Assembly (NCBI GenBank): GCA_965652295.1
Contig: CBFGTS010000002.1
Location: 308,570-372,569 of the forward strand
Source: an uncultured Haloferula sp.
GTDB lineage: Bacteria > Verrucomicrobiota > Verrucomicrobiia > Verrucomicrobiales > Akkermansiaceae
Direction: 5' to 3'
DNA length: 64,000 nt
Position 1 is the first letter of the stretch. Every line of letters begins with the position of its first letter. Positions 45,430-62,666 of this stretch are shown here, piece after piece. The notes below the pieces were generated by a model. It saw only the letters and a list, made by a program, of their open reading frames with translations, did not search any database and was not told where the DNA came from. Both the position numbers and the translations under genes were made by a program.

Positions 45430-45509
45430 ATGAGACGGTCTCATGCCTGACCCGCACTCAATTTCCTGAATCATTTGTGGAGATCGCCCTTTCTGGCAAG
45501 GCGCGCGCT
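45430..45509 (+). promoter_or_regulatory. LysR box plus sigma54-like promoter (porin-moaA)
   Basis: ATGA-GACGGTC-TCAT at 45430-45444; TGGCAAGGCGCGCGCT at 45494-45509. Confidence 0.7.
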
Positions 45510-45531
45510 TCCACGGCTGACGCAACTTGCC

Positions 45532-46803
45532 ATGAAATACTCCCTGATTACCGCCCTTGCCATTGTGTCCGCCGCCCGCGCCGGATCACCCGAACCTGCC
45601 ATGGTTTCCGAACCCGTGCAGCCGTGGATCAAGCCGACCCTCGATATCCGTGCCCGCTACGAGTACGGAGACGTCGACATCCCCGGCACCGACACCGCAT
45701 CCGCCTTCACCATCCGCGAGCGCGTCGGCCTCGTGACCCGTGACTGGCATGGCTTCAGCGCGCTCGTCGAAGGCGAGTTCCTTCAGGCCATCGGCGATGA
45801 CTACGACTCCGCCCCGACGCCTTTCGGTGTCCAAACGACCAATCCCAACCCGGCGAACCCGACGACCCAGATCTTCGATCCGGAAACCAACGAGCTCAAT
45901 CAAGCCTACCTGCAATACAAGGGCTTCGACACCACCGTGAAGGCCGGCCGTCAGCGCATCGTCCTCAACAACGCCGCCTTCATCGGCAACGTCGGCTGGC
46001 GCCAGAACGAGCAGACCTACGATGCCTTTAGTATCAGCAATGCATCGATCGATGACCTGACCTTGTTCTACGCCTACGCCAACCGCGCGAACCGGATCTT
46101 CGGCTCCGACGCCACCGGCGCGCTGCGCAGCTTCGCGGGAGACATCCATCTGTTCAATGCCGCCTACACCGGCTTCGGCGACGTTTCGCTTACGGGCTAC
46201 GCCTACTTGATGGACTTCGATGAGACCGCCGCCAACGCCGGCTATATCTCGAACAACACCTACGGCGCGATCGCCACCGCACCCGCCGGCCCGATCAAGC
46301 TCTACGGAGAGGTCGCCTTCCAGACGGATACCGACAGCTCGCCCGTCATGAAGCCGGACGAAGCGTGGTACGCCCACGTCAACGCCGCTTACAAGGCTGG
46401 CACGCACACCTTCACCCTCGGCTACGAATATCTCGACGCCGACTTCGTGACGCCGCTGGCCACCGTCCATGCCTTCAATGGTTTCGCCGACGCCTTCATC
46501 GGCCCGCGCATCGGCCTGGTGCGGAACCCCGGCCTGGCCGACATCTACCTGACCCACGCCACGCCGCTTCCGTTCTGGGGTATCAACTTCAACCAGACGT
46601 TGCATCTCTTCGGCGATAACAACTCCGACTTCGATTACGGCTGGGAATACGACGCGGTGCTGGCGAAGAAGTTCAACGAGAACTTCCTCGCGATCGCCAA
46701 GTTCGCCTACTACGACGCCCAAGGCCCGACCGCCGGCCCCATCGCCAATCTCGCGCCGTTTGACACCACCCGTTTCAGCATCGAGCTTAACTACACCTTC
46801 TGA
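45532..46803 (+). CDS. Alginate-export-family (AlgE-like) outer membrane beta-barrel
   Basis: Signal peptide; RARYE, ELNQAY, GRQRI, FIGNVGWRQNEQTYDA and HAFNGFAD motifs; terminal Phe. Confidence 0.82.
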   Translation: MKYSLITALAIVSAARAGSPEPAMVSEPVQPWIKPTLDIRARYEYGDVDIPGTDTASAFTIRERVGLVTRDWHGFSALVEGEFLQAIGDDYDSAPTPFGVQTTNPNPANPTTQIFDPETNELNQAYLQYKGFDTTVKAGRQRIVLNNAAFIGNVGWRQNEQTYDAFSISNASIDDLTLFYAYANRANRIFGSDATGALRSFAGDIHLFNAAYTGFGDVSLTGYAYLMDFDETAANAGYISNNTYGAIATAPAGPIKLYGEVAFQTDTDSSPVMKPDEAWYAHVNAAYKAGTHTFTLGYEYLDADFVTPLATVHAFNGFADAFIGPRIGLVRNPGLADIYLTHATPLPFWGINFNQTLHLFGDNNSDFDYGWEYDAVLAKKFNENFLAIAKFAYYDAQGPTAGPIANLAPFDTTRFSIELNYTF

Positions 46804-46826
46804 TTTTCCTCGCTTGGTTGCGCATC

Positions 46827-46862
46827 GGGCCCGGAGGAGCTTCCTTCGGGCCCATTTCATTT
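46827..46862 (+). terminator. GC-rich hairpin (terminator or mRNA stabiliser) between the porin gene and moaA
   Basis: GGGCCCGGAGGA-GCT-TCCTTCGGGCCC followed by ATTTCATTT. Confidence 0.55.
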
Positions 46863-46879
46863 CCACCCACTTCCCGATC

Positions 46880-47878
46880 TTGATCCTGACCGACACACTC
46901 CACCGGCCGTTGCACGATCTCCGGATTTCCGTGACGGACCGCTGCAATTTCCGCTGCCGCTACTGCATGCCATCGGAGGAGTTCGGTCCGGGGCACGTGT
47001 TTCTCCCCCGGGAGGAAATCCTGAGTTTTGAGGAGATCGTCCGCCTCTCCCGCATCGCGGCCGACCTCGGCGTCCGCAAGCTCCGCCTCACCGGCGGCGA
47101 ACCGCTGCTCCGGCGTGGCATTGCCGACCTCGTCGCCATGCTTGCCGCCATTGAGGGGATCGAGGAAATCGCCCTTACCACCAATGGCGTGCTGCTCGCC
47201 CACCACGCCGAAGCCCTCGCCCTCGCCGGCCTCTCGCGGGTCACCGTCAGCCTCGACGCGCTCGATCCCGTCGTTTTCGGCCGCATGAACGGCGTCGGCG
47301 CACGCGTCGACCGGGTCATCGCCGGCATCCACGCCGCCCGGACCTTCGGCCTTGGCGTCAAGGTCAACAGCGTCATCCAGCGCGGAGTCAATGAATCCGA
47401 GATCCTCCCCCTCGCCCGCTGGGCCAGGGAGCAGCAACTCACCCTGCGTTACATCGAGTTCATGGACGTGGGGGAAACCAACCACTGGAACGCTGGGCAG
47501 GTCGTCGAGGCCGCGGAGATCATTGCCACGATCGATCGCGAGTTCGCGCTCGACGTCCTTCCTCCCACCCATGCCGGGGAAACCGCAAAGCGCTGGGGTT
47601 TCGCCGACCGCCAGGGCGAGATCGGAGTCATCGCCTCCGTCAGCCAACCCTTTTGCCGCGATTGCTCGCGGCTCCGCCTTTCCGCCGACGGCCAGCTTTT
47701 CACCTGTCTCTTCGCCAGCCACGGCCACGACCTCCGCCCGCTGTTGCGCGGCGCGGCCGGAGACGATCTCATCCGGGCCACGCTCACCAGCCTCTGGCAG
47801 GCACGCGACGACCGCTATTCCGAGCTCCGCGGCCAGGTTCACGAACCCAAGGCTGAGATGAGTTATCTCGGGGGCTGA
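46880..47878 (+). CDS. moaA: GTP 3',8-cyclase (molybdenum cofactor biosynthesis)
   Basis: LRISVTDRCNFRCRYCMP radical-SAM motif; FCRDCSRLRLSADG; C-terminal MSYLGG; TTG start inferred. Confidence 0.93.
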   Translation: MILTDTLHRPLHDLRISVTDRCNFRCRYCMPSEEFGPGHVFLPREEILSFEEIVRLSRIAADLGVRKLRLTGGEPLLRRGIADLVAMLAAIEGIEEIALTTNGVLLAHHAEALALAGLSRVTVSLDALDPVVFGRMNGVGARVDRVIAGIHAARTFGLGVKVNSVIQRGVNESEILPLARWAREQQLTLRYIEFMDVGETNHWNAGQVVEAAEIIATIDREFALDVLPPTHAGETAKRWGFADRQGEIGVIASVSQPFCRDCSRLRLSADGQLFTCLFASHGHDLRPLLRGAAGDDLIRATLTSLWQARDDRYSELRGQVHEPKAEMSYLGG

Positions 47879-47908
47879 AAAGAGTGGCTTTTCAAACCCG
47901 ACCCCCTC

Positions 47909-48820
47909 CTACGGATCGCCCAAAGCCTCGCCCACCATCGCCGCGATCCCGGCAAAAGTTTCCTCGATCAGGCTCATCGGCCGGTCCTTGTTCCAGAACA
48001 CCGCCCACTCGCGCTCCATCGGCACGTCGCCGACGGTGATCGCCCTCAGGCTCCCCTCCTCAATCTCGCGGCGGGCCACCCACGGAGCGACGATGCCGAC
48101 CCCGATGCCGATCTTGGACATTTCCTTGATCGCCTCCACATCGCCCAAGGCCAGCGGAGCCCTCAGCCGGACCCCCATGCCCGCGAAATGCCTCTCGACC
48201 AAACCGTAAGTCTTGGTCGCCTTCGCATAGATGATGAACTGCGTCTCCTCGATTTCCTCCACCGGGCGCTCGTCCGTGTCGCTCCACGGATGCATCGGCG
48301 GCACCACGAAGATCATCTTGTCGTGGAAGATCGTCCGCGATTCGACATCGACGTCGTCTCCCCGCATGCCGATGACCACGTCGAGATCATGGTCCAGCAG
48401 CTTCTCCTGGAGGGCGGCGGTGTCGCCCGCCTCGATCATCGGCTCGCAACGCGGGAAGCAGTCCCTGAACTCGCGCAGCACCGTGGGCAGCAGGAACTGG
48501 CACAGCGAGTGCGGCGCTCCGATCCGGATCCGGTTCTGACCCCAGCGCTTCATCCCATCCAGCTCGCGGCCGGCCTGCTCGAGTTCGCCGAGCACCCGCC
48601 GGCAACGATTGAGAAACACCTCGCCCTCCCCTGTCAGAGCCGTCCGTTTTCCAAGCCGCGTGAGCAGCTTGCAGCCGAGGCTGTCCTCCAGCGCCTTCAT
48701 TGAGTGGCTGATGGCGGATTGTGTTAGAAAAAGCTTCTTCGCTGCGAGCGTGAAGCTCCCTTCGTCGGCGACAGCGACAAATGATCGAAGTTGGCGCAGG
48801 TCCGGTAACAGCTCACTCAT
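47909..48820 (-). CDS. LysR-type transcriptional regulator of the nitrate cluster
   Basis: SFTLAAKKLFLTQSAISHSMKALE winged HTH; 303 aa. Confidence 0.95.
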   Translation of the reverse strand: MSELLPDLRQLRSFVAVADEGSFTLAAKKLFLTQSAISHSMKALEDSLGCKLLTRLGKRTALTGEGEVFLNRCRRVLGELEQAGRELDGMKRWGQNRIRIGAPHSLCQFLLPTVLREFRDCFPRCEPMIEAGDTAALQEKLLDHDLDVVIGMRGDDVDVESRTIFHDKMIFVVPPMHPWSDTDERPVEEIEETQFIIYAKATKTYGLVERHFAGMGVRLRAPLALGDVEAIKEMSKIGIGVGIVAPWVARREIEEGSLRAITVGDVPMEREWAVFWNKDRPMSLIEETFAGIAAMVGEALGDP

Positions 48821-48898
48821 GAAGGGCTCTCATGAAAATTTCTTCCCGAAAAGAGCATGAGGCATGCCAATGCCGAAGAAGTTGGCATTGATCAAGCT
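48819..48898 (+). promoter_or_regulatory. LysR box (overlapping the lysR start codon) plus sigma54-like promoter for the NasS-like gene
   Basis: ATGA-AGGGCTC-TCAT at 48819-48833; TGGCATTGATCAAGCT at 48883-48898. Confidence 0.72.
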
Positions 48899-48910
48899 TT
48901 GCGAAGCGAC

Positions 48911-49945
48911 ATGCCGCCCGTTGACTCCCGCTCGCCGATCCGCCTCGGTTTCGTCCCCCTGAATGACTGCGCCCCCGTCGCCGTCGCCAAGGAACTCGGA
49001 ATTTTCGAGCAATACGGTCTCAAGGTGCGGCTCTCGCGCCAGCCCGGCTGGGCCACCGTCCGCGACATGCTTCTCTATGGTGAGCTCGACGCCGCCCAGT
49101 CGATCGCCGGCCTCGCCTTCCACCTCGCCCTCGGGCTCAGCCGGCTGCGCCGCGAGGTCGCCGTCCCGTTGATCCTCAGCGCCCACGGAAATGCCATCAC
49201 CCTTTCGAACGACATCCCCCACGACATCGTCGGCCACGGTGAAGGCCTCGCCGGATTCATCGCCCACCGTTGGAAGAGGAACCGGCCGCTCACCCTCGCT
49301 GCCGCCCACCGTTTTTCCTCCCACCACATCCTCATGCAGGCCTGGCTGCACCGCCATGGTCTCAAGGGCGGACGCGAGCTTGAGCTCGTATTTCTCCCCC
49401 CGCCCCTGATGCCCGGCCACCTCGCGGCGGGGCACATCGATGGCTTTTGTGTCGGCGAGCCTTGGAACTCGGAGGCCATTCTCAACGGGCACGGCTGGAG
49501 CCCGGTGACCTCCGCCGATCTCGCCACGGGCCACCCCGAAAAGATCCTCCTCATCGATGGCAACTTCGTCGGTGAGCGGCGCGACGACACCGTCGCCCTC
49601 GGGGCCGCCCTGCTCCACTCCTGCCGCATGTGCCAGGATCCCGATTTCCTCGATGAGATGGTGAGAATTCTCGCCATGCCCGCCTACACCGGCTGCTCGG
49701 AGAAAACCCTGCGCAACAGCCTCGGGCCGAGATTCAACTCCGGGCGCGGGATGCTCGATGGTTCCAACCTCCATCTCTTCTTCGGTGGCGACCTCAACTG
49801 CCCCAGTGCCGACAAGGCCTCATGGTTCCTCTCCGGCATGCGCAACACCGGTCTGCTGCCCGACAACATCACCGCCTCGTCGCTGACCCGCCTCTATCGC
49901 CAGGACCTTTTCCGCTCCTCCGAAAAGGCGATGATGCCCGCATGA
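48911..49945 (+). CDS. CmpA/NrtA-fold protein without signal peptide (NasS-like cytoplasmic nitrate/nitrite sensor)
   Basis: RLGFVPLNDCAP, GNAITLS, PPPLMP, GFCVGEPWN and HPEK motifs; no N-terminal hydrophobic segment; ATG at 48911 lies just downstream of the promoter. Confidence 0.8.
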   Translation: MPPVDSRSPIRLGFVPLNDCAPVAVAKELGIFEQYGLKVRLSRQPGWATVRDMLLYGELDAAQSIAGLAFHLALGLSRLRREVAVPLILSAHGNAITLSNDIPHDIVGHGEGLAGFIAHRWKRNRPLTLAAAHRFSSHHILMQAWLHRHGLKGGRELELVFLPPPLMPGHLAAGHIDGFCVGEPWNSEAILNGHGWSPVTSADLATGHPEKILLIDGNFVGERRDDTVALGAALLHSCRMCQDPDFLDEMVRILAMPAYTGCSEKTLRNSLGPRFNSGRGMLDGSNLHLFFGGDLNCPSADKASWFLSGMRNTGLLPDNITASSLTRLYRQDLFRSSEKAMMPA

Positions 49946-50020
49946 ACGGAACTCATCGGACGCATCGAGTTTCCTCTCTCATCATTCATGGTTGGAGCCC
50001 GCCTTGGCATGCCCCCCGCT
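49942..50020 (+). promoter_or_regulatory. LysR box plus sigma54-like promoter (narK-kinase)
   Basis: ATGA-ACGGAAC-TCAT at 49942-49956; TGGCATGCCCCCCGCT at 50005-50020. Confidence 0.72.
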
Positions 50021-50046
50021 GATGGAAACGAACTCCGAGCGTTTCC

Positions 50047-51528
50047 ATGAGCACTCCATCCCAAGGCAAACTCAATCTCTTCGACTTCAAGGCACCGTCC
50101 ATCCGGACACTCCACGTCACGTGGTTCGCCTTCTTCCTGACCTTCGTCCTGTGGTTCAGCCACGCGCCGATGAAGGACGCGATCACCACCGCCTTTGGCA
50201 TGACCAATGCGCAGTGGAAAGCACTCCTCATTCTCAATGTCGCGCTCACCATCCCATCGCGGATTGTGATCGGCATCCTCGTGGATAAGTTCGGGCCGCG
50301 GTTGACCTACTCGCTTCTCCTCATGAGCGCGGGGGTGCTGTGCTCGTTCTTCGCTCTGGCACGGAGTTTCGAAATGCTGGCGCTCGCCCGGTTCCTCATG
50401 GGCTTCGTCGGCGCGGGTTTCGTGATCGGAATCCGGCTGGTGGGCGAGTGGTTTCCGGCACGCCAGGTCGGTCTGGCCGAGGGCGTCTACGGCGGATGGG
50501 GGAATTTCGGATCGGCCGCCGCGGCCATGATCCTTCCCTCGCTCGCGTTGGCCTTCGGCGGAGAAGACGGCTGGAGATATGCGCTGCTTTCCATCTCCGC
50601 CATCGCTTTCCTTTACGGCATCCTCTTCTACCGCGTCGCCCGCAACACACCCAAGGGTTCGACCTATTTCAAGCCAAAGAAGTCCGGCGGACTTGAGGTC
50701 TCCACGCGCCGCGATTTCGGGTTCCTGCTCGCCATGAACGTGCCGATGTTCCTCGCGCTCGGCGTGCTGGCGTGGAAACTCTCGCCCTCCGGCGTGAACC
50801 TCCTCCCGCAGCCGTTGGTTTACCTTCTCTATCTCGTTCTCGTCGTCCTCTTCGCCATCCAGACATGGCAGATCTGGCGGGTGAATGCGGACATGCTCAA
50901 GACCGGCGGAGTGCCCCAGCACCAGCGCTACTCGTTCCGGCAGGTCGCGATCCTCGACGTGAACTATTTCATCACCTTCGGCTCGGAGCTGGCGGTCGTC
51001 TCCATGCTTCCCGCCTTCTTCGCCGACACCTTCGGCCTCAGCCCCGTCACCGCCGGCCTGCTCGCCTCCGGCTTCGCCTTCATGAACCTCGCCGCCCGGC
51101 CGGGTGGCGGATGGATCTCCGACAAGTTCGGCCGCCGCAAGTCGATGCTGATCCTCCTCGCCGGCCTCGCCGTCGGCTATCTCCTCCTTTCGCGCATCGA
51201 TTCCGGCTGGCCGGTCGCCCTCGCCGTGGTGGCCACCATGTGCTGCTCGTTCTTCGTTCAGGCGGGTGAGGGTGCCGTGTTCGCCATGGTGCCGCTCATC
51301 CAGCGCCGCATGACCGGCCAGATCGCCGGCATGGCCGGAGCTTATGGAAACGTCGGCGGCGTCACCTTTCTCACCATCTACTCGTTCGTCGATGCCTCCA
51401 CCTTCTTCGTGATCATCGCCGCCTCATCCATCATCGGCTTCTTCGCCTCCTTCTTCCTCGCCGAACCCCAAGGCCACATCACCGAGGTCGCGGAAGACGG
51501 CTCGGTGCAGCTTATCGAAGTGGCGTGA
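50047..51528 (+). CDS. narK: NarK/NasA-family MFS nitrate/nitrite transporter
   Basis: [24 protein letters not shown] nitrate signature, [12 protein letters not shown] and GAYGNVG motifs. Confidence 0.92.
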
Positions 51529-51538
51529 CCCGCCTCCG

Positions 51539-53314
51539 GTGAACAACCGCTCCACGTACCCCTCGCCATCCCCGGCCCACCCGGCTAGGGATGGCTTCGT
51601 GCATCTCAAGGGAAACATCGGTTTGGACAGCGGGCGGTTCACCCACCCCGGCCCGAAACCGGAGAACCAGGACTTCCTCGGCATGCGCGTGCCGGAAGAC
51701 TCGCTGCTCGCCACCAAGGGCATCGCCGCCTGCATCGCCGATGGAGTTTCCGCCGCCTCCGCCGCCCGCGAGGCCGCCGAGACCTGCGTCCGCACCTTTC
51801 TCACCGACTACTTCGAAACGCCGGAATCCTGGCAGGTCAAAACCGCCGGGCAGCGCGTCCTGACCTCCATCAACCGCTGGCTCTTTTCGCAGGGACAGCG
51901 GCATTCGTCCGCGGAGAAGGGCTGCGTCACCACCTTCACCGCCGTCGTCCTCAAGTCCCACACCGCCCACATCTTCCACATCGGGGATTCCCGGCTCTAT
52001 CGCCTGCGCGAGGGCGAGGTGGAGCAAGTGACCCGCGACCACTCCGCCCGCGTCTCCGCCGACACCTGCTACCTGACCCGCGCGATGGGAATCACGCTGA
52101 ACCCGCGGATCGACTACCACACCCTTCCGCTCGCCGCCGGGGACCTACTGGTCCTCACCACCGATGGCATCCACGATTTCATCCCCCGCCCGGAGTTTCA
52201 CGAGATCCTCCGCCAGGACGACTCCCCCCAGGAAATCGCCGACCGCCTCGGTGCCGCAGCCGCCGGCAGCAACGACAACCGCTCAGCTCTGGTTCTCCGC
52301 ATCGATTCGCTTCCGGACGAGGATCAGGACGATGTCTTCCGGCAGCTTGCGCCGCTGCCGTTCCCCCCTCCACTGCTTCCGGGACAATCGATTGATGGCC
52401 TCCGCGTTGAAAAACTCGTCGCCGAATCGCCGCGCTCGCAGCTCTACCTCGTACACGACACGTTGGACGGCGACCGCCCGTTCGTCATCAAGACGCCCTC
52501 CGCGAACTTCGATGGCGATGCTTCCTACCTCGAGCGCTTCGCCTTTGAAGAATGGATCGGCCTGCGCACCGACAGCCCCCACCTCGTCAGAGCCGTCCGC
52601 CGTTCCCAGCCACGCCGGTTCCTCTATTACCTTCTCGAACCCGTCGATGGACCCAGCCTCGCCCAGTGGGTCCGCGATCATCCCCGGCCGCCCGTCCACC
52701 AGGTGATCCACCTCGTGAAAGGCATCGTCGCCGGAGTCCGCGCGCTCCACCGGCAGGACACCTTGCACCAGGATCTCAAGCCCGAGAACATCCTCATCGA
52801 TTCGGACGGCACGGTGAAGATCATCGACTACGGCAGTTGCCGTATCGGCGGCATCGGGGAGATCGCCTCCCCGTTCCAGCGGGAAACCGCGCTCGGCACC
52901 GTCGATTTCTCCGCACCGGAATACCGCCTCGGCTCCAGCCCGACCTCGCGCTCCGACCTCTTCTCGATCGCCGCCATCACCTACCACCTCCTCACCGGCG
53001 GCGAGCACCCCTTCGGACCACAGTGGGAAAAGGCCCGCACGCTCCGCGAGTTTCACCAGCTCCGCTATATCAGCACCATCGTCCACAACCCGATGGTCCC
53101 CCTGTGGATGGACGCCACCCTCCGCAAGGCCCTTTCCATCCTCCCCGAGCATCGGCATGAATCGATGTCGGAGTTCGTCACCTACCTCCAGCAGCCTGAT
53201 CCGTCGCTCGTCACGCCCGGACCGGTACCTCTCGCCCAGCGAAATCCCCTGCTTTTCTGGAAGCTCGTCGCCTTGTTCTTCTTCCTCGCCTGGGTAGCGA
53301 GCCTGCTCTTCTGA
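51539..53314 (+). CDS. Bifunctional PP2C phosphatase / Ser-Thr protein kinase with C-terminal TM segment (start uncertain; GTG at 51599 possible)
   Basis: NQD, IADGVS, HIGDSRLY, LTRAMG and TDG (PP2C); VIK, HQDLKPENILI, IIDYG and APEY (kinase). Confidence 0.9.
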   Translation: MNNRSTYPSPSPAHPARDGFVHLKGNIGLDSGRFTHPGPKPENQDFLGMRVPEDSLLATKGIAACIADGVSAASAAREAAETCVRTFLTDYFETPESWQVKTAGQRVLTSINRWLFSQGQRHSSAEKGCVTTFTAVVLKSHTAHIFHIGDSRLYRLREGEVEQVTRDHSARVSADTCYLTRAMGITLNPRIDYHTLPLAAGDLLVLTTDGIHDFIPRPEFHEILRQDDSPQEIADRLGAAAAGSNDNRSALVLRIDSLPDEDQDDVFRQLAPLPFPPPLLPGQSIDGLRVEKLVAESPRSQLYLVHDTLDGDRPFVIKTPSANFDGDASYLERFAFEEWIGLRTDSPHLVRAVRRSQPRRFLYYLLEPVDGPSLAQWVRDHPRPPVHQVIHLVKGIVAGVRALHRQDTLHQDLKPENILIDSDGTVKIIDYGSCRIGGIGEIASPFQRETALGTVDFSAPEYRLGSSPTSRSDLFSIAAITYHLLTGGEHPFGPQWEKARTLREFHQLRYISTIVHNPMVPLWMDATLRKALSILPEHRHESMSEFVTYLQQPDPSLVTPGPVPLAQRNPLLFWKLVALFFFLAWVASLLF

Positions 53315-53322
53315 GACCCACA

Positions 53323-53524
53323 ATGACCCATGGTCATCCGAATGGAGCAAGTCCATGGATCGCGCTCATATCAGAGCCGTTCCGGGACCGCGGCGCCACC
53401 TTCGACCAACCCCCATCCCCTTCATGTTGAGGAAGTTAGATCGCATGCGGCCGCTTCACCTTGAACATGAAAAGGAAGCAGTGGCGATCATACCATGAAC
53501 CGGAGCCCGGGCATGCCAGGCGCT
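53323..53524 (+). promoter_or_regulatory. Several LysR boxes plus sigma54-like promoter (nrtABCD)
   Basis: Perfect ATGA-N7-TCAT at 53323-53337; variants at 53355-53369 and 53445-53459; GGGCATGCCAGGCGCT at 53509-53524. Confidence 0.68.
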
Positions 53525-53555
53525 TATTGGGAGTTGATCCGCCAACTCCAACATC

Positions 53556-54911
53556 ATGCAAATTCGTCACACCATCCTCCTCACCGCCCTCACCCTCGGC
53601 TCGCTCTCCGCGGAGCAGCTCGCCGTCGAAAAGGACGAGCTGAAGCTCGGCTTCATCAAGCTGACCGACTGCGCCCCGATCGTCATCGCCAAGGAAAAAG
53701 GCTTTTTTGAAGACGAGGGCCTCCAGGTCGAAGTCATCGCCCAGTCCAACTGGAAAGTCCTCCTCGACAACGTCATCACCGGCAACCTCGACGGTGCCCA
53801 CATGCTTTCCGGTCAACCGATCGCCGCCACCATCGGCATCGGCACCGAAGCTCACGTGGTGACCCCGTTCACCATGGACCTCAACGGCAACGGCATCACC
53901 GTCTCCAACGCCGTCTGGGAGCAGATGCAGGAAAACGACCCCGACCTCGACACCGACGAACCGGAGCACCCGATCTCCGCCGATGCGCTCAAGCCGATCG
54001 CCGACGAACTCCTCGCCGAGGGCAAGAAGCTCCAGATGGGCATGGTCTTCCCGGTCTCCACCCACAACTACGAACTCCGCTACTGGCTCGCCGCCTCCGA
54101 GATCCATCCCGGATATTACTCCAAGACCGACCTCGCCGGCCGCACCGACGCCGAAGTCGAACTCTCCGTCACGCCCCCGCCGCAGATGCCCGCCACCCTC
54201 GAGGCCGGCACCATCTCCGGCTACTGCGTCGGCGAGCCGTGGAACCAGCAGGCCGTCGCCAAAGGCATCGGCGTCCCCGTCACCACGAACTACGACATCT
54301 GGAAAAACAATCCGGAGAAGGTTTTCGGCGTCACCAAGAAGTTCGCTGATGAAAATCCGAAGACCCTCATCGCCCTCACCAAAGCCCTGATCCGGGCGGG
54401 GAAATGGCTCGATGCCACGGAGGGCGACAAGCTCGTCAACCGCGAGGAAGCCTGCCGCATCCTCTCGCAGCCGAACTATGTGGGTGCCGACTTCGAGGTC
54501 ATCAAGAACTCCATGACCGGCACTTTCATCTTCCAGAAGACGGACGTCCGCGACATGCCCGACTTCAATGTCTTCTTCAAACACGACTGCACCTACCCTT
54601 GGTATTCCGACGGCGTGTGGTTCCTCACCCAGATGCGCCGCTGGGGCCAGATCACCGAGCCCAAGCCCGCCTCCTGGTATCAGGAAATCGCGAAAAAGGT
54701 CTACCTCCCCGACGTCTACATGAAGGCCGCCGAGTCGCTGCTTGCCGAAGGCAACCTTGAGGAAAGCGAAATGCCGAAGACCGAGGATGGCTACAAGCCC
54801 ATCACCACCGACTTCATCGATGGCAACGCGTTCGATGGCCATAAGCCCATCGAATACCTCAACTCCTTCAAAATCGGCATCAAGGACGACCCGTCCCTCG
54901 CCACCAAATAA
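53556..54911 (+). CDS. nrtA: Nitrate ABC transporter substrate-binding protein (NrtA/CmpA family)
   Basis: Signal peptide; [32 protein letters not shown] and [11 protein letters not shown] motifs. Confidence 0.9.
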
Positions 54912-54925
54912 GTCAACATCACCGT

Positions 54926-54953
54926 GGAGAGCGGGCACCCCTGTCCGCTCTCC
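54926..54953. repeat. REP-like palindrome/hairpin after nrtA
   Basis: GGAGAGCGGGCA-CCCC-TGTCCGCTCTCC. Confidence 0.65.
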
Positions 54954-55013
54954 TGCATTTCCCTTTCTCCTTTTCACCTTCCACCCGCTCCCCGCCCTCG
55001 GCGCCATTCTGTT

Positions 55014-56615
55014 ATGAAATACAAGCTCCTCAAGGTCATCGATACCGCCGGCCTGAGCTTTCTCTCGCCGGTCGTCCGACTCGTCACCGGCGAGGAACCC
55101 CGGAAGCAGGTCAAGGACATCGCCCGCTTCATCGTGGTGCCGGTGCTCGCCTTCCTCGCCTTCCTCTGGCTGTGGGCGATGGTTGCGCCCAAGCACAAGA
55201 CCAAGGCCGGTGAGGTTCCGACACCCTCCGTCGTCTGGGACGCGGGAAAGGGCGTCTGGCTCTTCCATCAACGCGAGACCGCCAAAGAAGACGGCTTCCT
55301 CCTCACCGGTACCGCCCGTGAGACGGAAATGAAGAACGCCACCGAGCGTCTGGCCGAGGTGGAGAAACTCGAAGTCCTGGCCAAAGAACAGCTCGCCGCC
55401 GCGCGCGAGTCCTCGAAGGAGCGTTTCGACGCAGCCGTCGCCCCGACCAAGAACGCCTACGACGCCAAGCGCGACGAATACCGCGACTTCCGCAAGAACA
55501 GCGCCACGGCCCTCAAGGCCGAGGCCGCCACCCTGGCCACCGCACCCGCCGAAGTCCGCATGGCCTTCCTGGCGAAGCTCCGTGAGAACGAGAGAACCGA
55601 GGCCGCGCTCAAAGCCGAGGTCGATGCCCTCAAAACGAAATACACCGCAGCTCAGGAACTCACCTTTCCCCAGGTGAAATCCGCTCTCCGCGCGTCCACC
55701 CTGCTCGGTGAGGAAAAGCAGTTCCTCACGAAATACATCGACATGCTCGGTGACAACTCCCGCGAGGTGAAGTTCCACGCCGCCAAGGACAAGCTCGCCC
55801 AAACCCGGAAACAGTTCCTCACCGCCACCGATGGCGATCTTTACAAGCTCGGCACCGGCATCATCAAGAACGAGGACTTCCTCCAGACCACCGCAAGCTC
55901 CCAATACGCCAAGCCCTGGACCCTGCCCAAGCAGATCATCCGCTCGCTGTTCTGCGTCTTCGCCGGCTTCCTCATCGCCTCCGCCATCGCCATTCCCATC
56001 GGCATCCTGTGCGGACTCTCCCCCACCTTCATGGCGGCCGTCACCCCCTTCATCGCCCTCTTCAAGCCCGTCTCACCCCTCGTCTGGCTACCCATCGTCA
56101 TGATCATCGTCGGGGGCTTCATGCCCGATCCCGAAAACCACTGGCTGGTCACCGCCCTCGGCAAGGTCCCGGTCATCAAGGACTACAGCATCGACCCGAT
56201 GTTCATCTCCTCCGCCATCACCGTCGCCCTCTGCTCACTGTGGGCCACCTTGGTCAATACCGCGCTCGGCGTCGGTTCGATCGACAAGGACCACCTGAAC
56301 GTCGCCCGCGTCCTGCGCCTCGGATTCACTTCGCGGCTGGTGAAGATCATCATCCCCACCGCCCTGCCGCTCATCTTCGCCGGCCTCCGCATCTCGCTCG
56401 GCGTCGGCTGGATGGTCCTCGTCGCCGCCGAGATCCTTTCCACCTCCGAAGGCATCGGGAAATTCGTCAACGACATGTATACCAACGGATCGTCGCAGTC
56501 CTTCGCCCAGATGTTCGTGGTGGTCTTCATCGTCGGCTTCATCGGCATGCTGCTGGACCGGATCATGGTCTTCCTCCAGCGCCTTGTCTCCTTCGACACC
56601 GCCCCCGCCCTCTGA
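55014..56615 (+). CDS. nrtB: Nitrate ABC transporter permease with a long helical extramembrane insertion
   Basis: [19 protein letters not shown] and [17 protein letters not shown] motifs; ATG at 55014. Confidence 0.88.
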
Positions 56616-56626
56616 ACGAAGCGGCG

Positions 56627-57559
56627 ATGATGGAACCGGCATCATCTACCATGAACACCGTATCTTTCCCCAAAAGCATGCCTTTTCTCGAACTTGACCA
56701 AGTGTCCATCGGTTTCGGCCCGGAGAACACGCGGGTCGATGTCCTCAAGGACGTCAACCTCTCCGTCGCCGAGAACGAATTCGTCGCCGTCATCGGCTTT
56801 TCCGGTGCCGGAAAATCGACGCTCGTCTCACTCCTCGCCGGCCTGGAACGCCCCACCGCCGGCGAAGTCCGGATGGCTGGCGAAAGGATCACCCACCCCG
56901 GACCCCGGCGCGGTGTGATGTTCCAGTCCTACTCGCTGCTGCCCTGGCTGACCGTTTACGGAAACATCCAGCTCGCCGTGAAGCAGGTCTTTCCCGGTAA
57001 ATCCAAGGCCGAGGTGAAGGAACACGTCGAGCGCTACATCGAGATGGTCCACCTCACCCCGGCCCGCGACAAGCGGCCGCACGAACTCTCCGGCGGCATG
57101 CGCCAGCGGGTTTCCCTGGCACGCACGCTGTCCATGCAGCCCGAGGTCCTGCTGCTCGACGAACCCCTTTCCGCGCTCGACGCCCTCACCCGCTCCGTCC
57201 TCCAGGACGAGATTCTCCAGATCTGGGAGCAGGAGAAGAAGACCGTCGTCCTCATCACCAACGACGTGGATGAGGCCATCCTCATGGCCGACCGGATCAT
57301 CCCGCTCACCATGGGGCCCGAGGCCACCCTCGCCGACGCCTTTCCCATCACCCTCCAGCGCCCGCGCGATCGCCGCACCTTGACCGACGATCCCGAATAC
57401 CAGCGCCTCAAGGCCGACATCACCTCCTACCTCGTCGGCCTCAACAAGGAGGCCCGAGCTCTCCGCGGCAACAACATCCTCACCATGCCCGAGGTCGCCC
57501 CACGCGACTTCAAGGCCCCGTCCAAAATCCGCGGCCTCCGGTGGAAGAACACCGCGTGA
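56627..57559 (+). CDS. nrtC: Nitrate ABC transporter ATP-binding protein (start may be 56651 or 56678)
   Basis: GFSGAGKST Walker [20 protein letters not shown]. Confidence 0.88.
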
Positions 57560-57574
57560 AGCCCATGCCCATCC

Positions 57575-57982
57575 ATGCGCTCCCTGCCTCCACCACTTCG
57601 CTACTTCGCGGGTCTGCGGACTCCGCGCCTGGTGCTCTGGTGCTACCTGGTCTGGTACCTCGTCACCGTCGCCCACGAGTTCTCCCCCAGCCCGCGGCTG
57701 TGGATGAACTCGCTGGGCATCAGCGGCGTCATCGGGCTGGCGCTGCTGCTGAGTGTCAGCTCCTCCGGCCGGGACTCATGGCAAACGTTCCGGCTCTTCC
57801 TGATGCCATTCTGCGTTTCCAGTTTCTCCGGCCTCATCAAGGACCGGGGCTACTTCCTCATTTTCCCGCCCGATGTGGCCCAGCTTCTTCTGACCACCGG
57901 CACCTGCGCCGGCTTCGTCCTCGTCGTCGCCCTTCTCAAGTGGCTCTCCACCGCGTCGGCCACCGTCACCGCTAAATCCTGA
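57575..57982 (+). CDS. Hypothetical 4-TM membrane protein within the nrt operon
   Basis: Four hydrophobic segments; fills the gap between the two ATPase genes on the same strand with 15- and 5-nt spacers. Confidence 0.75.
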
Positions 57983-57987
57983 TTCCC

Positions 57988-58860
57988 ATGCGTTCCGTCG
58001 AAATCTTCAATCTCGCCAAGTTCTACCCCAACCCCTACGGCGAACCGTTCAAGGCCGTCGTCGATTTCAATCTGAACATCGAGCAGGGCGAATTCGTCGG
58101 CCTCATCGGCCACTCCGGCTGCGGCAAGTCCACCGTTCTTACCATGCTCGCCGGCCTCAATGAGATCTCCGATGGCGGCATCGTGGTCAACGGCCGGGAA
58201 ATCGACGGCGCCGGTCCCGACCGCGCCGTGGTCTTCCAATCGCCCTGCCTCATGCCCTGGCTCACCGCCTATGGCAACGTGATGCTGGGCGTGAAAAACG
58301 TCTACCCGCATGCCACCAAGGCCGAGCGCAAGCAGATCGTCGAATACGCGCTTTCATCCGTCGGCCTCGCCGACTCGATGAAGAAATACCCGCGCGAAAT
58401 GTCCGGCGGCATGCAGCAGCGCGTCGGCATCGCCCGCGCGATCGCCCTGAAACCGAAGCTCCTCCTCCTCGACGAGCCCTTCGGCCGCCTCGACTCCCTC
58501 ACCCGCATGGAACTCCAGGACGTCATGCTCGACATCCTCAACCGCGAGAAGATCACCACCGTTCTCGTCTCCCACGACGTCGATGAGGTCGTCTTCCTCT
58601 GCGATCGCGTCGTGATGATGACCAACGGTCCGTCCGCGACCATCGGCGAGATCCTCCGCATCGATTTCGACCGCCCACGCGACCGCGCCACCATGCTCCA
58701 CGACCCGCTCTACTTCCGCTGCCTCGATCACCTCGTCTCCTTCCTCACCGAGCGCGCCCACCTCCGCACCGAGCCCCGCATCCACGATTCCAACAGCCTC
58801 CTCACCTTTCTCGGCCGCAAGCTCGAATCTGCCGAAGAACTCTCCCAAGCCGTCGCCTGA
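57988..58860 (+). CDS. nrtD: Nitrate ABC transporter ATP-binding protein
   Basis: [38 protein letters not shown]. Confidence 0.88.
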
Positions 58861-58882
58861 CCAAAGAAGGAGGCCCCACCTA

Positions 58883-59018
58883 CCAGTGGCATGACCGTCT
58901 CGGTCATGAACGCGGAAGCCCGCCTCACCCCGCTCTCGCCCGCCCTTCTTCCAGCCCTTCTCTTCTCCTTTCACAACCAGGACCGCCGACAAGTCGGGGC
59001 ACGCGGCCCCACATCATC
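58883..59018. repeat. MITE-like element (copy 2, inverted, degenerate right end)
   Basis: CCAGTGGCATGACCGTCTCGGTCATGAACGCGGAAGCCC matches the reverse complement of 20869-20907; GGACCGCCGACAAGTCGGGGCACGCGG matches the reverse complement of the left arm of copy 1. Confidence 0.68.
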
Positions 59019-59046
59019 ATCCCGCTCATCCACCCGGCACCCATCC

Positions 59047-59126
59047 ATGAATCCTGCTCATCCAGAGCGTGATGCCCTTTCCCCTCCGACCCCCACCCTA
59101 CCTCCCCTCATCGCATGCCAACTGCT
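59047..59126 (+). promoter_or_regulatory. LysR box plus degenerate sigma54-like promoter (nirA)
   Basis: ATGA-ATCCTGC-TCAT at 59047-59061; TCGCATGCCAACTGCT at 59111-59126 (CG in place of GG at -24). Confidence 0.62.
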
Positions 59127-59156: not shown

Positions 59157-60917
59157 ATGCGACTGATCAGCGAAACCACCGGCTTCTCCGACGAGCAGAC
59201 CGTTTTCCTCAAAGCCTTCATTTCCGGCCTCCAACAAGGTCGTGATCTGCCCCACCTCGGCCAGGACGGGGAAGGCCGCTTCACCCATGAGGAAGAGCAA
59301 AGCGTCTACGGCACGCCCATCGACGATCTCTGCAAGGAAGAGCGGATCAAGTATGAGAAGAACGGCCTCGACTGCTACGACGAGATCCTCGCCAACGCGC
59401 TCGAGAACAAGTTTCCCGACGCCGAGGATGTCTTCCGTTACAAGTTCCACGGCCTCTTCTACGTCGCTCCGGCCCAGGACAGCTTCATGCTCCGCTGCCG
59501 CATCGCCGGCGGCGCGCTGAGCACCTACCAGTTCCGCGGCCTCGCCGAGATCGCGCAGGACTGGGGCCCCGGTCACGCCGACCTGACCACCCGCGCCAAC
59601 GTCCAGATCCGCGAAATCGAGCCGAAGAACTGCCCCTCGGTTCTGATGAAGCTCGCCGACCTCGGTCTCACCTCGCAGGGCTCAGGTGCCGATAACGTCC
59701 GCAACGTCACCGCCACCCCGACCACCGGCTTCGACCCCACCGAGTTGATCGACGTGCTGCCCTACGCCCGCGCGATGCATCACTACATCCTCAAAAACCG
59801 CGACCTCTACGGTCTGCCGCGGAAGTTCAACATTTCCTACGACTCCGGCGGCTGCGTCTCCGTCTGCGCCGACACCAACGACATCGGCTTCTACGCCGTC
59901 CGCGTCGGCGAGAACGACCGCGGCATCGAGCCCGGCGTGTACTTCCGCATGCAGCTCTGCGGTATCACCGGCCATCAGCAGTTCGCCTCCGATTGCGGCG
60001 TGCTCCTCACCCCGGCCGAAACCATTCCGGTCGCCGCCGCTCTCATCCGCATGTTCATCGAGAACGGCGACCGCACCAACCGCAAGAAGGCCCGCCTGAA
60101 GTATCTCGTCGATGACTGGGGTTTCGAAAAAACCCTCGCCGAAACGCAGAAGAAGCTCGCCTTCGATCTCCGCTACTTCCCCGAGGAGCTTTGCGAAAAA
60201 CCCGCCGCCAAGGACAAACAAGGCTACCTCGGCATCCACCCGCAGACCGATGGCAAAAACTACATCGGCATCTGCACCCCCGTCGGCCGCATGAGCGTTT
60301 CACAAATGCTCGCCCTCGCCGACATCGCCGACGAATTCGGCCGCAGCGAGATCCGCCTGACCGTCTGGCAAAACCTCATCATCCCCGGCATTTCCGACGA
60401 TCACCTCCAGGCCGCGCTCACCGCCATCCAGGCCACCGGCCTCGATTACCGGAACAACCCGATCACCGGCGGCATCATCGCCTGCACCGGCAGCCGCGGC
60501 TGCAAATACGCCGCCTCCGATACCAAGGGCGACGCCGTCGCTCTCGGCCAGCACATCGCCTCGAAGATGATCCTCGACCTCCCCATCAACCTCCACCTCA
60601 CCGGCTGCCACCACTCCTGCGCCCAGCACTACATCGGCGATATCGGCATGATGGGCACCCGCGTGAAGATCGAAGATGGCTCCACTGTCGATGGCTACAA
60701 CATCGTCCTCGGCGGCGGCGTCGATGACCAACAGTTCATCGGACGCGAAGTCTGGAAATCCGTGAAAGCCACGGAAATCAACGCCCTCGTCGAGCAACTT
60801 CTCTGCGCCTACCTCGCCCAGCGCACCGAGGGCGAAACCTTCGCTGACTTCACCCGCCGCCTCTCCGTCGAAGAACTCCAGTCCCTCGTGGACCAGTCGA
60901 AGCTCGCCGCCGCTTAA
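59157..60917 (+). CDS. nirA: Ferredoxin-type nitrite reductase (NirA family, siroheme/4Fe-4S)
   Basis: LTTRANVQIR, GADNVRN, LPRKFNI, ACTGSRGCK and LTGCHHSCAQ motifs; nitrate cluster context. Confidence 0.9.
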   Translation: MRLISETTGFSDEQTVFLKAFISGLQQGRDLPHLGQDGEGRFTHEEEQSVYGTPIDDLCKEERIKYEKNGLDCYDEILANALENKFPDAEDVFRYKFHGLFYVAPAQDSFMLRCRIAGGALSTYQFRGLAEIAQDWGPGHADLTTRANVQIREIEPKNCPSVLMKLADLGLTSQGSGADNVRNVTATPTTGFDPTELIDVLPYARAMHHYILKNRDLYGLPRKFNISYDSGGCVSVCADTNDIGFYAVRVGENDRGIEPGVYFRMQLCGITGHQQFASDCGVLLTPAETIPVAAALIRMFIENGDRTNRKKARLKYLVDDWGFEKTLAETQKKLAFDLRYFPEELCEKPAAKDKQGYLGIHPQTDGKNYIGICTPVGRMSVSQMLALADIADEFGRSEIRLTVWQNLIIPGISDDHLQAALTAIQATGLDYRNNPITGGIIACTGSRGCKYAASDTKGDAVALGQHIASKMILDLPINLHLTGCHHSCAQHYIGDIGMMGTRVKIEDGSTVDGYNIVLGGGVDDQQFIGREVWKSVKATEINALVEQLLCAYLAQRTEGETFADFTRRLSVEELQSLVDQSKLAAA

Positions 60918-60980
60918 GAGAGCACCCCGCCGTCGCGCACTCGGTCCTGAAAACTGCACACTGAAAACTCGCAAACTTTC

Positions 60981-62666
60981 TTGGTCACCACCCTCCAACC
61001 TTCACCCCCGGAGAAACCGCCGCTTCCCAAAGCCAGCGAGCTCCGCACCCTGATCGACGACCTCCTCGCCGAGCAAGGCACGCTTCAGACCCCCGTCGCC
61101 CGCTTCGCCGAGATCCACGATCGCCAGCCCGACCTCGCCGAGCACTACCGCAATCTCATCCCGCTCTCCAAGCCCGGCCCGGGTGAGCAATACGCCTTCG
61201 AGGTTTCCCTCGACCGCTGCACCGGCTGCAAGGCCTGCGTTTCCGCCTGCCACAATCTCAACGGCCTCGACGACCATGAAGTCTGGCGCGACACCGGCAC
61301 TCTCGTCGGCGGGAGCGTCGCCCCCGGCTGGCAGCAGACCGTTACCACCGCCTGCCACCACTGCGAGGATCCGGGCTGCCTCAACGGCTGCCCCGTCGGC
61401 GCCTACGAAAAGGACACGGACACCGGCATCGTCCGCCACCTCGACGACCAATGCATCGGCTGCTCCTACTGCATCCTCAAGTGCCCCTTCGACGTCCCGA
61501 AGTATTCCAAGAAGCGTGGCATCGTCCGCAAGTGCGACATGTGCCACCAGCGCCTCGCCGAGGGCGAAGCGCCCGCCTGCGTCCAGGCCTGCCCCACCGA
61601 GGCCATCCGCATCGTCAAGGTCGAGACCGGCAGGGCCGAGCGGCCCGCCCGGCCGACTCGTTTCGCTCCGCCGCCCCCCTTCCTCACCGGTGCGCCGGAC
61701 CCAGCCCTCACCCTTCCCACCACCCGCTACGTCGGCCGCAAGGTCCCCGAGACCGCCCACGCCGCCGACCGCGACCAGCTCGTCCCCCAGCACGCCCACT
61801 GGCCGCTGGTCTTCATGCTCGTCCTCACCCAAGCCGGCATCGGCCTCTTGGGGAGCGCCAGCTTCAGCTTCATGGGGAGCGCCGGCGTCCCGCCGGCTTC
61901 GTCCGGCATCCTGCCGGGCGTCTTCCCCATCATCCTCGGAGCCATCCTGTTCAACCTCGGCATGGTCGCCGCCACCCTTCACCTCGGCCAGCCCCTCAAA
62001 GCCTGGCGTTTCTTCCTCGGTCTGCGCACCAGTTGGCTCTCCCGCGAAATCCTTGCGTTCTCCCTCTTCGCCCCCATCCCCGTCATCCTCGCGGCCCTTC
62101 CCTTTCTCCCCGACTTCCCGTTCAAGGACCAGCTCACACTTCTCGTGACTTACTCGGTGATTCCCGCCGGGATCATCGCCATCTTCACCAGCGTCATGAT
62201 CTACGTCGATACCCATAGATCGCTGTGGCGACTGCCGCTGACCAGCGCACGTTTCTTTGGCACCACCCTTTCTTTTCTACTCGTCGGGCTCGCCGTCACC
62301 ACCCCTGAGCTCCGCCTCTTCGCCACCTTCGCGATCCTTCTCAAGATGATCCCCGAAGCCCGGATCCTCAAACGTCCCACCGATCCCTCGAGCGACTGGC
62401 GAACCATTGCCAAATCGGTTCCCGAACGCGAAGTCTCCGCCTGGTCACCCGACCGGCATAGTGCCCGCCTCCAGCTCGGCCCACTCCGCCGCATCCTCAA
62501 TGCCCGCGTCATCCTGGCGTTCGCCGCAGCCTTTGTCGTCCTCGCACAGCCGTGGATCGCCCTCCCCCTGCTACTCGTGTCCGAAATCCTCGAACGACAA
62601 CTCTTCTTCCAGGCCGTCCAGGCCCCGAAGATGCCCGGCCACTTCGGCTCCGCACCATCGCATTGA
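60981..62666 (+). CDS. DmsB-like four-cluster Fe-S domain fused to a DmsC/NrfD-like membrane anchor
   Basis: CTGCKACVSAC, CHHCEDPGCLNGCP, CIGCSYCILKCP and KCDMC..ACVQACP; then HWPLVFMLVLTQ, HLGQP and SWLSREI. TTG start uncertain. Confidence 0.88.
   Translation: MVTTLQPSPPEKPPLPKASELRTLIDDLLAEQGTLQTPVARFAEIHDRQPDLAEHYRNLIPLSKPGPGEQYAFEVSLDRCTGCKACVSACHNLNGLDDHEVWRDTGTLVGGSVAPGWQQTVTTACHHCEDPGCLNGCPVGAYEKDTDTGIVRHLDDQCIGCSYCILKCPFDVPKYSKKRGIVRKCDMCHQRLAEGEAPACVQACPTEAIRIVKVETGRAERPARPTRFAPPPPFLTGAPDPALTLPTTRYVGRKVPETAHAADRDQLVPQHAHWPLVFMLVLTQAGIGLLGSASFSFMGSAGVPPASSGILPGVFPIILGAILFNLGMVAATLHLGQPLKAWRFFLGLRTSWLSREILAFSLFAPIPVILAALPFLPDFPFKDQLTLLVTYSVIPAGIIAIFTSVMIYVDTHRSLWRLPLTSARFFGTTLSFLLVGLAVTTPELRLFATFAILLKMIPEARILKRPTDPSSDWRTIAKSVPEREVSAWSPDRHSARLQLGPLRRILNARVILAFAAAFVVLAQPWIALPLLLVSEILERQLFFQAVQAPKMPGHFGSAPSH
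61874..61925 (+). repeat. REP-like element inside the coding sequence, in frame
   Basis: 50/52 identical to the intergenic copy at 62680-62731. Confidence 0.85.

Follow-up and report, generated by a model that had tools for sequence, protein, structure and literature searches.

The nitrate cluster of an uncultured Haloferula sp. raises the question of how a LysR-type transcriptional regulator (LTTR) can serve promoters that carry the signature of sigma-54. In the textbook picture, sigma-54 specificity comes from an AAA+ activator bound at an enhancer, and LysR activators work with sigma-70. The window, i.e. the whole stretch of DNA analysed here, comprises 64,000 nucleotides (G000:C2:308570-372569, where G000 is the 4.37-Mb genome of this organism). 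An earlier note on it had proposed that the LysR protein encoded in the cluster controls sigma-54-type promoters by a contact at fixed distance, possibly with a sigma-54 that needs no activator. Sequence comparison confirms the architecture, a predicted LysR operator followed at fixed distance by a -24/-12 promoter, as real, conserved across the class and common to paralogous regulons. The choice of which nitrate and urea promoters fire would then seem to lie with the LysR protein instead of a distant enhancer. The reading we favour, with a probability of roughly 0.55, is an AND gate. LysR would recruit the sigma-54 holoenzyme to a promoter that is weak, and melting would be the task of a bacterial enhancer-binding protein (bEBP) that acts independently of an enhancer.

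Each of the five units in the window consists of an ATGA-N7-TCAT palindrome (the box) followed by a -24/-12 element. The distance from the start of the box to the first base of the -24 dinucleotide (d) is 65, 65, 64, 65 and 65 bp. The unit preceding the porin gene and moaA has a perfect box (45430..45444, + strand) 9 bp 3' of the stop codon of the preceding gene, and its element, TGGCA-N8-GCT, carries no T at -14 (45494..45509, +; d=65, 45430 to 45495). A second perfect box (48819..48833) is shared, serving as the upstream site for the nasS-like gene, with its element at 48883..48898 (+; d=65, 48819 to 48884), and overlapping the start of lysR. The perfect box of narK (49942..49956, +) overlaps the nasS stop codon and is followed by an element at 50005..50020 (+; d=64, 49942 to 50006). 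At nrtA a variant box is joined by a sub-site at +22 that begins with ATGA (53445..53481, +), and the element has G for T at -26 (53509..53524, +; d=65, 53445 to 53510). The nirA unit combines a perfect box (59047..59061, +) with an element that has CG for GG, i.e. a non-G at -25, and a T at -14 (59111..59126, +; d=65, 59047 to 59112). Exact TGGCA is present in three of the five units, the other two being variants. The GC of the element lies 23, 13, 27, 32 and 31 nt before the ATG of the porin, nasS-like, narK, nrtA and nirA genes, respectively.

The lysR gene has a -24/-12 promoter of its own, with a T at -14 (48854..48870, - strand), back to back with that of nasS (48854-48898, 11 bp between the -24 hexamers). 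The narK box on the nasS stop codon and the nasS box on the lysR start leave no intergenic space for an enhancer. The predicted nasS start site is 2 nt before the ATG, and the nasS message would be nearly leaderless. An extra perfect box (53323..53337) lies 122 bp upstream of the nrtA box. No promoter is in phase with it, and it may be a relic or serve in DNA looping. Re-inspection bears out the five units of the earlier note, their 64-65 bp spacing and the 13-32 nt between GC and ATG. Its scan was incomplete, and the box at 53323, the promoter of lysR itself, sub-sites at +22 and +31, and a sixth unit had been overlooked.

In the genome as a whole there are 21 perfect boxes, five of which fall in the 13.7-kb cluster against 0.07 expected. 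A scan with a weight matrix trained on 54 promoters, all from relatives, returns exactly six sites scoring above 20: the five units of the window and one outside it (C4:286527, d=64). The latter lies 5' of a gene for the catalytic subunit of nitrate reductase, named from its own sequence and from homologues in nitrate clusters. A motif search upstream of related genes had been proposed as a check of the spacing; in 33 loci carrying a LysR relative, 49 of the 57 pairs of a perfect box and TGGC-N9-GC (17-200 bp apart) fall at 64-66 bp. When up to two mismatches in total are allowed, box and promoter precede the orthologous start in 12 of 13 cases for the porin gene, 2 of 2 for narK, 3 of 4 for nrtA and 6 of 7 for nirA, and none of 11 internal genes by the same test. 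The nirA orthologues all have a box at 64-65 bp (7/7).

Among 301 genomes of the class, in which kin are not independent, the exact pattern is present in 70, and the reversed control gives 4 matches. Thirty of the matching loci were fetched. Those with TGGCA front nitrate-cluster genes or diverge from lysR in 17 of 18 cases; those with another fifth base never do (0/12), and are taken as chance matches. By a hand count of the match list the TGGCA-type architecture occurs in 51 of the 301 genomes, 49 of which encode the LysR. The LysR is found in 98 genomes in all, and only two of the 203 genomes lacking it have the architecture. Among the remaining boxes of the Haloferula genome, a perfect one at G000:C17:3398 precedes a second amtB-like gene and has no promoter in phase, and two others (G000:C26:12305 and C27:2890) are a further helical turn away, at d=75, in front of genes for an outer-membrane protein and an esterase-like protein.

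The box is most simply regarded as the operator of the nitrate LysR, as had been supposed. In 39 of 41 orthologue loci the mapped start of lysR has a perfect copy at a distance of 13-26 bp, and the box co-occurs with the gene as described above (49/51). Weaker copies are seen at +22 and +31 in 35 non-redundant promoters, with scores of 3.46 and 3.37 of 8; the best offset over 2000 shuffles reaches at most 2.77, below both. The site accordingly shows the T-N11-A dyad of an LTTR operator with weaker sub-sites two and three turns downstream. This three-site layout is that of the sliding-dimer model of LTTRs, as set out in PMC11495319, and box, +22 and +31 sub-sites match it. The same text places the strong LTTR site near -65 with sigma-70 elements. 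This classical layout is not found here, as the predicted centre is at -83 and the promoters have no TAnnnT (0/46). The box over the lysR start (48819..48833) would be suited to autorepression. The -24/-12 promoter of lysR recurs in 28 of the 41 loci, including 26 of 26 close ones, all 26 with the -14 T.

The NasS-like gene diverges from lysR in 34 of 41 loci, and no nasT was seen in the cluster. Inspection by eye of 24 small receiver proteins revealed no ANTAR-like end; the Pfam search for ANTAR did not recover its controls and is given no weight here. NasS may relay the nitrate signal to LysR, the two forming a candidate sensor pair.

The identification of the downstream element as a sigma-54 promoter is supported by its consensus, TGGCA-N8-GCT, and by rpoN, which is present in this genome (TIGR02395, above cut-off) and in 31 of 31 genomes of the order. 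A T follows the GC in 41 of 46 non-redundant promoters, at a base outside the search pattern, as befits the sigma-54 element that the earlier note had seen in GG-N10-GC. A sigma-70 -10 element was also looked for, and TAnnnT occurs at neither expected position in any of the 46; sigma-70 readings of the promoter were dropped on this ground. The same consensus is found 5' of glnK, amtB, a CP-ATP-grasp gene and rpoN itself. Sigma-54-like sites are also seen in this genome before tpiA-, fba-, clpX-, ald- and mdh-like genes, named from the starts of their sequences.

The strength of the cores differs between targets and non-targets of the LysR. T-rich -14 regions raise occupancy in the closed complex, as is reported for Klebsiella nifH compared with nifH049. 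In close relatives the -14 T is absent from all LysR-box TGGCA promoters (0/23), and present in all promoters of amtB (20/20) and of lysR (26/26), these two being sets of orthologues. The nirA orthologues keep the -14 T and have lost the -25 G (7/7), a pattern shared by the nitrate reductase promoter of the Haloferula genome. So in this family every nitrate target has one weakened element, lacking either the T at -14 or the G at -25.

In a canonical unit a bEBP enhancer is located 80-250 bp upstream, often with a site for integration host factor (IHF). No NtrC-type or other shared enhancer is detectable in the 250 bp upstream of 48 promoters, a degenerate or distant one not being excluded by this search. 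NtrC-like matches occur at the level of shuffled sequence, enriched dyads are mostly lysR coding sequence, and the IHF consensus is absent (0/46). Upstream of the amtB promoter, at 189-305 bp, a conserved element was considered as an enhancer and rejected. In all 19 loci (19/19) it keeps a constant distance of 151-159 bp to the start of a divergent outer-membrane gene. Nitrate and urea loci do not have it, and it is therefore assigned to that divergent gene. At L135:4410-4440 (G000:C4 near 100425) this element is a possible leader RNA or operator.

Two paralogous LysR proteins have boxes of their own variants. The box of the cyanate LysR, which is encoded beside a cyanate transporter and cyanase, lies at 66 bp. 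This arrangement is confirmed in the Haloferula genome alone; two relatives were checked and gave no clear match. A second NasS-like gene is located within a cyanate operon (L051:11724-12758). The urea LysR, beside a urea/amide transporter, has its box at 43 bp in five and at 33 bp in six of the 11 urtA promoters (11/11 loci). These spacings put the urea boxes on the same helical face as the nitrate sub-sites (65-22=43, 65-31=34). A second urea-type box (L092:466-515) flanks the urea LysR on its other side, with a -24/-12-like site at d=32. In a tree with long branches and only three outgroup rows, the three nitrogen LysRs cluster together (98/96), apart from the other three LysRs of the genome. 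The divergent regions of these three unrelated genes contain no TGGCA promoter.

RpoN aligns over its full length to solved sigma-54 structures. All 30 sequences from the order (30/30) retain Region I and the equivalent of R336. These are the determinants affected in bypass mutants, and even such mutants need a pre-opened bubble, according to PMC7057263. The position of W328 is never Trp (0/30) and most often Phe (21/30). In one family (f1; L011, L082-L087) the Glu of the helix-turn-helix (HTH) is lost, giving HAT, HPS, HIS or HVS against HET in other families, which might be related to recognition of the -14 region.

The window's contig has no match to Sigma54_activat. The earlier note's remark that no bEBP was in view therefore holds for the window and its contig but not for the genome, which elsewhere encodes three strong bEBPs (two with GAFTGA, one with GSFTGA) and one degenerate. 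The census of bEBPs that it had proposed extends this result: all 151 genomes of the phylum that were searched, including two of 0.9 Mb, have at least one strong bEBP, and retention even at that size suggests an essential sigma-54 function. In the four one-bEBP genomes checked, the single protein is the orthologue of an AtoC-like protein of the Haloferula genome (C9:106280), which adjoins a PAS kinase. One AtoC-like bEBP is retained even in a 0.9-Mb genome (L057 of G129; L002). The degenerate bEBP (L004, G000:C6:213373-214686) lacks GAFTGA and lies beside histidine phosphotransfer-like and kinase-like genes.

One of the strong proteins is an orphan NtrC-like bEBP (G000:C6:32446-33819). Its best NCBIfam match is ntrC, below the cut-off (TIGR01818, 435.9 against 558.6). 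Of the 63 genomes that the order has outside genus g15, this one included, 62 carry it as a single copy; within g15 it is found in 0 of 18. The G(A/S)FTGA loop is kept in 30 of 30 sequences, GAFTGA in the Haloferula copy. The phospho-Asp position is Glu in 24 of 30 (the Haloferula copy keeps Asp), and only 3 of the 30 have an intact recognition helix in the HTH (HTH_8 in the Haloferula copy, 20.2 against a cut-off of 22). No adjacent kinase gene was seen in any of 12 further loci. In one search for the orphan protein the E-value cut fell inside its own clade, and non-matches were not counted as absences; in ten architecture-positive genomes a lower cut gave best matches of 349-372 bits, nine of which were inspected. 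The protein is a candidate for an activator that needs no enhancer, with a possible link to nitrogen. A perfect box 74 bp before its gene was considered as a feedback link and rejected; it is perfect in the Haloferula genome only among 35 loci, with one mismatch in two more.

The AND gate builds on the sites, their spacing and phase, the contrast in promoter strength, the co-occurrence of box and LysR, a canonical RpoN and the presence of bEBPs. From these we infer binding, the sign of control, a polymerase contact, the acting bEBP and the inducer as follows. Under nitrogen limitation a general bEBP without a dedicated enhancer, for which the orphan NtrC-like protein (G000:C6:32446-33819) is the best candidate, would fire the strong sigma-54 promoters of glnK, amtB and lysR. 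The nitrate cores, each with one weakened element (no -14 T or a non-G at -25), would be poorly occupied by the holoenzyme alone. A LysR tetramer would bind a strong site spanning roughly -90 to -76, together with weaker ones that span -68 to -54 or -59 to -45. When induced by nitrate or nitrite, perhaps via the NasS-like protein, LysR would contact RNA polymerase on the same helical face and stabilise the closed complex, and the bEBP would then melt the nitrate promoter with ATP. Through the box over its start codon LysR would repress its own gene.

LysR could instead tether the bEBP itself and so replace the enhancer, with LysR providing address and signal and a bEBP of degenerate HTH providing the ATPase. 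The pseudo-receiver of the orphan protein, its degenerate HTH in this order and its lack of an adjacent kinase would suit such a role, and phased spacing suits any fixed contact. However, the strong promoters without a LysR box (amtB, 20/20) are also without an enhancer, so the bEBP would act untethered there; its HTH is intact in several other orders, and the weakness of the cores suggests that what limits firing is occupancy by polymerase. Tethering is in our view unlikely. LysR might also be a repressor or anti-activator that is relieved by inducer, with NasS as a possible sensor and activation from the bEBP alone. To go by the titles of Porrua 2009 and Platero 2016, AtzR is negative at sigma-N promoters. 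LTTRs without inducer are stated in PMC11495319 to bend DNA and block promoters, and the urea box at d=33 is close to the core. Yet there is no overlap between the nitrate sites and the -24/-12 core, cores that are weak throughout and have no enhancer would be hard to fire unaided, and the layout is like that of the activator NtcB; this role for LysR is doubtful.

The possibility raised in the earlier note, that sigma-54 is activator-independent here and that LysR suffices to switch the promoters on, in the manner known for sigma-70, draws some support from the lack of a detectable enhancer or IHF site, from the sigma-54-like sites before apparent housekeeping genes (named from their sequence starts), and from the changes in RpoN (no Trp at the W328 position in 30 of 30, HTH Glu lost in one family). 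It is nevertheless opposed by the conservation of Region I and R336 in all 30 sequences, given that bypass mutants still depend on a pre-opened bubble (PMC7057263). It is also opposed by the bEBP kept in all 151 genomes and the one conserved orthologue shared by the four one-bEBP genomes checked. It is the least likely of the explanations weighed; of the original proposal the fixed, phased spacing and the tracking of LysR by the box stand, and independence of an activator is not supported. Alternatively, the element could be read by a sigma-70-type factor, with TTGGCA (which resembles TTGACA) as a -35 or within a classical LTTR promoter, or the box could be a bEBP enhancer. The absence of TAnnnT and the conservation of GCT at sigma-54 spacing speak against the one. 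The tracking of the LysR gene by the box, the separate variant of each paralogue and the three unrelated LysRs without a TGGCA promoter speak against the other, and we regard both as very improbable.

Several points weigh against the AND gate itself. Outside close relatives the -14 T is present in 8 of 23 LysR-box promoters, and most urea promoters keep it, so that weak cores are not universal; the amtB and lysR promoters used for comparison are orthologues and not independent samples. In other orders that bear the architecture the receiver of the orphan bEBP is canonical and its HTH frequently intact. Its ties to nitrogen consist of similarity and a loose proximity, with nitrate genes lying within ~11 kb in 2 of 10 cases. 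The actions of LysR proteins at sigma-54 promoters found in the literature searched are all negative (AtzR, by titles). Two prior claims of a non-AAA co-activator at such promoters have been overturned (BosR) or doubted (AhrC).

The cluster consists of genes for a porin, MoaA, LysR, a NasS-like protein, NarK, a PP2C-kinase fusion, an ABC nitrate transporter, NirA and an Fe-S/DmsC protein. The outer-membrane porin (45532..46803, +) belongs to the Alginate_exp family (PF13372) and is followed by moaA, which encodes a molybdenum cofactor radical-SAM enzyme (46880..47878, +; PF04055 and PF06463). The nitrate LysR (47909..48820, -), whose start codon overlaps the box, was assigned by profile search with no NCBIfam family above cut-off; its nearest named relatives are from Haloferula species (86-89% identity). 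The NasS-like nitrate-binding protein (48911..49945, +; NMT1_2 by profile search) is probably a cytoplasmic sensor. The NarK-type MFS nitrate/nitrite transporter (50047..51528, +; MFS_1) takes its name from context. Within the cluster there is also a fusion of a PP2C phosphatase and a Ser/Thr kinase (51539..53314, +; profile searches), probably co-transcribed with narK. The ABC nitrate transporter genes (53556..58860, +; open reading frames and profile search) comprise nrtA, nrtB and nrtC, a small membrane protein and nrtD. Nitrite reductase nirA and a gene for an Fe-S/DmsC-anchor protein complete the cluster (59157..62666, +; profile search, NF007126 above cut-off).

The significance of the arrangement lies in a LysR operator that stands in helical phase with sigma-54 cores in many families of one class and in three paralogous regulons. 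Strong and weak cores within the same 70 bp provide built-in controls, and allow a direct test of whether recruitment by a non-AAA factor can gate transcription from sigma-54 promoters. The arrangement outlines nitrogen control in a group that is abundant in soil and water but little studied, and engineers could use it as a two-input switch. More tentatively, sigma-54 in Verrucomicrobiae could possibly work in a eukaryote-like manner. One or two enhancer-less AAA+ proteins would serve as general melters, and a LysR subfamily would supply promoter choice and signal, via phased contact with the holoenzyme or tethering of the ATPase; in the extreme form LysR alone would suffice.

The literature searched, with subscription journals largely outside its coverage, contains no account of this architecture or of activator-independent sigma-54 in Verrucomicrobia, and the report of such variants mentioned in the earlier note was not found there. 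PMC12316311 predicts sigma-54 regulons, including those of Verrucomicrobiia, and LysR is absent from its main text. Canonical enhancer-dependent promoters such as glnAp2 with NtrC and nifH with NifA (PMC7057263, PMC4987338) share with the present ones the -24/-12 consensus, genomes that encode GAFTGA bEBPs, and an RpoN in which Region I and R336 are present. They have an enhancer, often with an IHF site, whereas here none was found and a T-N11-A LTTR operator lies at 33, 43 or 64-66 bp. In the enteric NtrC-Nac system a LysR gene is likewise transcribed from a sigma-54 promoter under nitrogen limitation, and Nac then hands control to sigma-70 promoters; here the targets stay with sigma-54. The nac gene is named in PMC4987338. 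The NasS-NasT system also has a NasS-like binding protein in a nitrate cluster, but in this cluster no nasT was seen and the NasS-like gene is divergent from that of LysR (34/41).

AtzR of Pseudomonas sp. ADP, at PatzR and PatzT, resembles the present case in being a LysR protein at sigma-N promoters that serve an alternative nitrogen source. Its own gene reportedly has a sigma-N promoter without upstream activation sequences, its positive target is reportedly of sigma-70 type, and the titles of the 2009 and 2016 papers call it a repressor and anti-activator of sigma-N promoters. In contrast to these negative actions, every target here has a sigma-54 core, and the box precedes it in phase and at a fixed distance. 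For BosR/Rrp2 and AhrC/RocR we know of no class-wide phased spacing. BosR acts on mRNA stability, and its claimed role as co-activator at a sigma-54 promoter has been overturned (PMC11109971). AhrC, which acts with RocR, has been suggested to act at a separate SigA promoter, and its co-activator role is doubted (10.1101/2023.04.21.537655).

NtcA-NtcB at cyanobacterial PnirA is similar in serving nitrate genes, in dyads 22 bp apart, and in the AND-gate logic proposed here. In Anabaena, NtcB occupies 22-bp tandem dyads, contacts the alpha subunit of RNA polymerase and needs NtcA (10.1101/2022.10.10.511513). The LysR tetramer there reads ATGC-N7-GCAT-N7-ATGC-N7-GCAT and is dependent on a global nitrogen activator. 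The fit to NtcB suggested in the earlier note accordingly extends to the layout of the sites but not to orthology, as NtcB is the second match of the nitrate LysR in the PDB (E 2.7e-20 against 9.1e-30 for the first). No NtcA-like conserved block appears in the logos, in which an NtcA box was not searched for explicitly, and the core is of -24/-12 type with no -10. PnirA, by the same source, thus combines sigma-A, the CRP-family partner NtcA and a box at -100 to -64, whereas the Haloferula promoters combine a sigma-54 core with ATGA dyads at a predicted -90 to -54.

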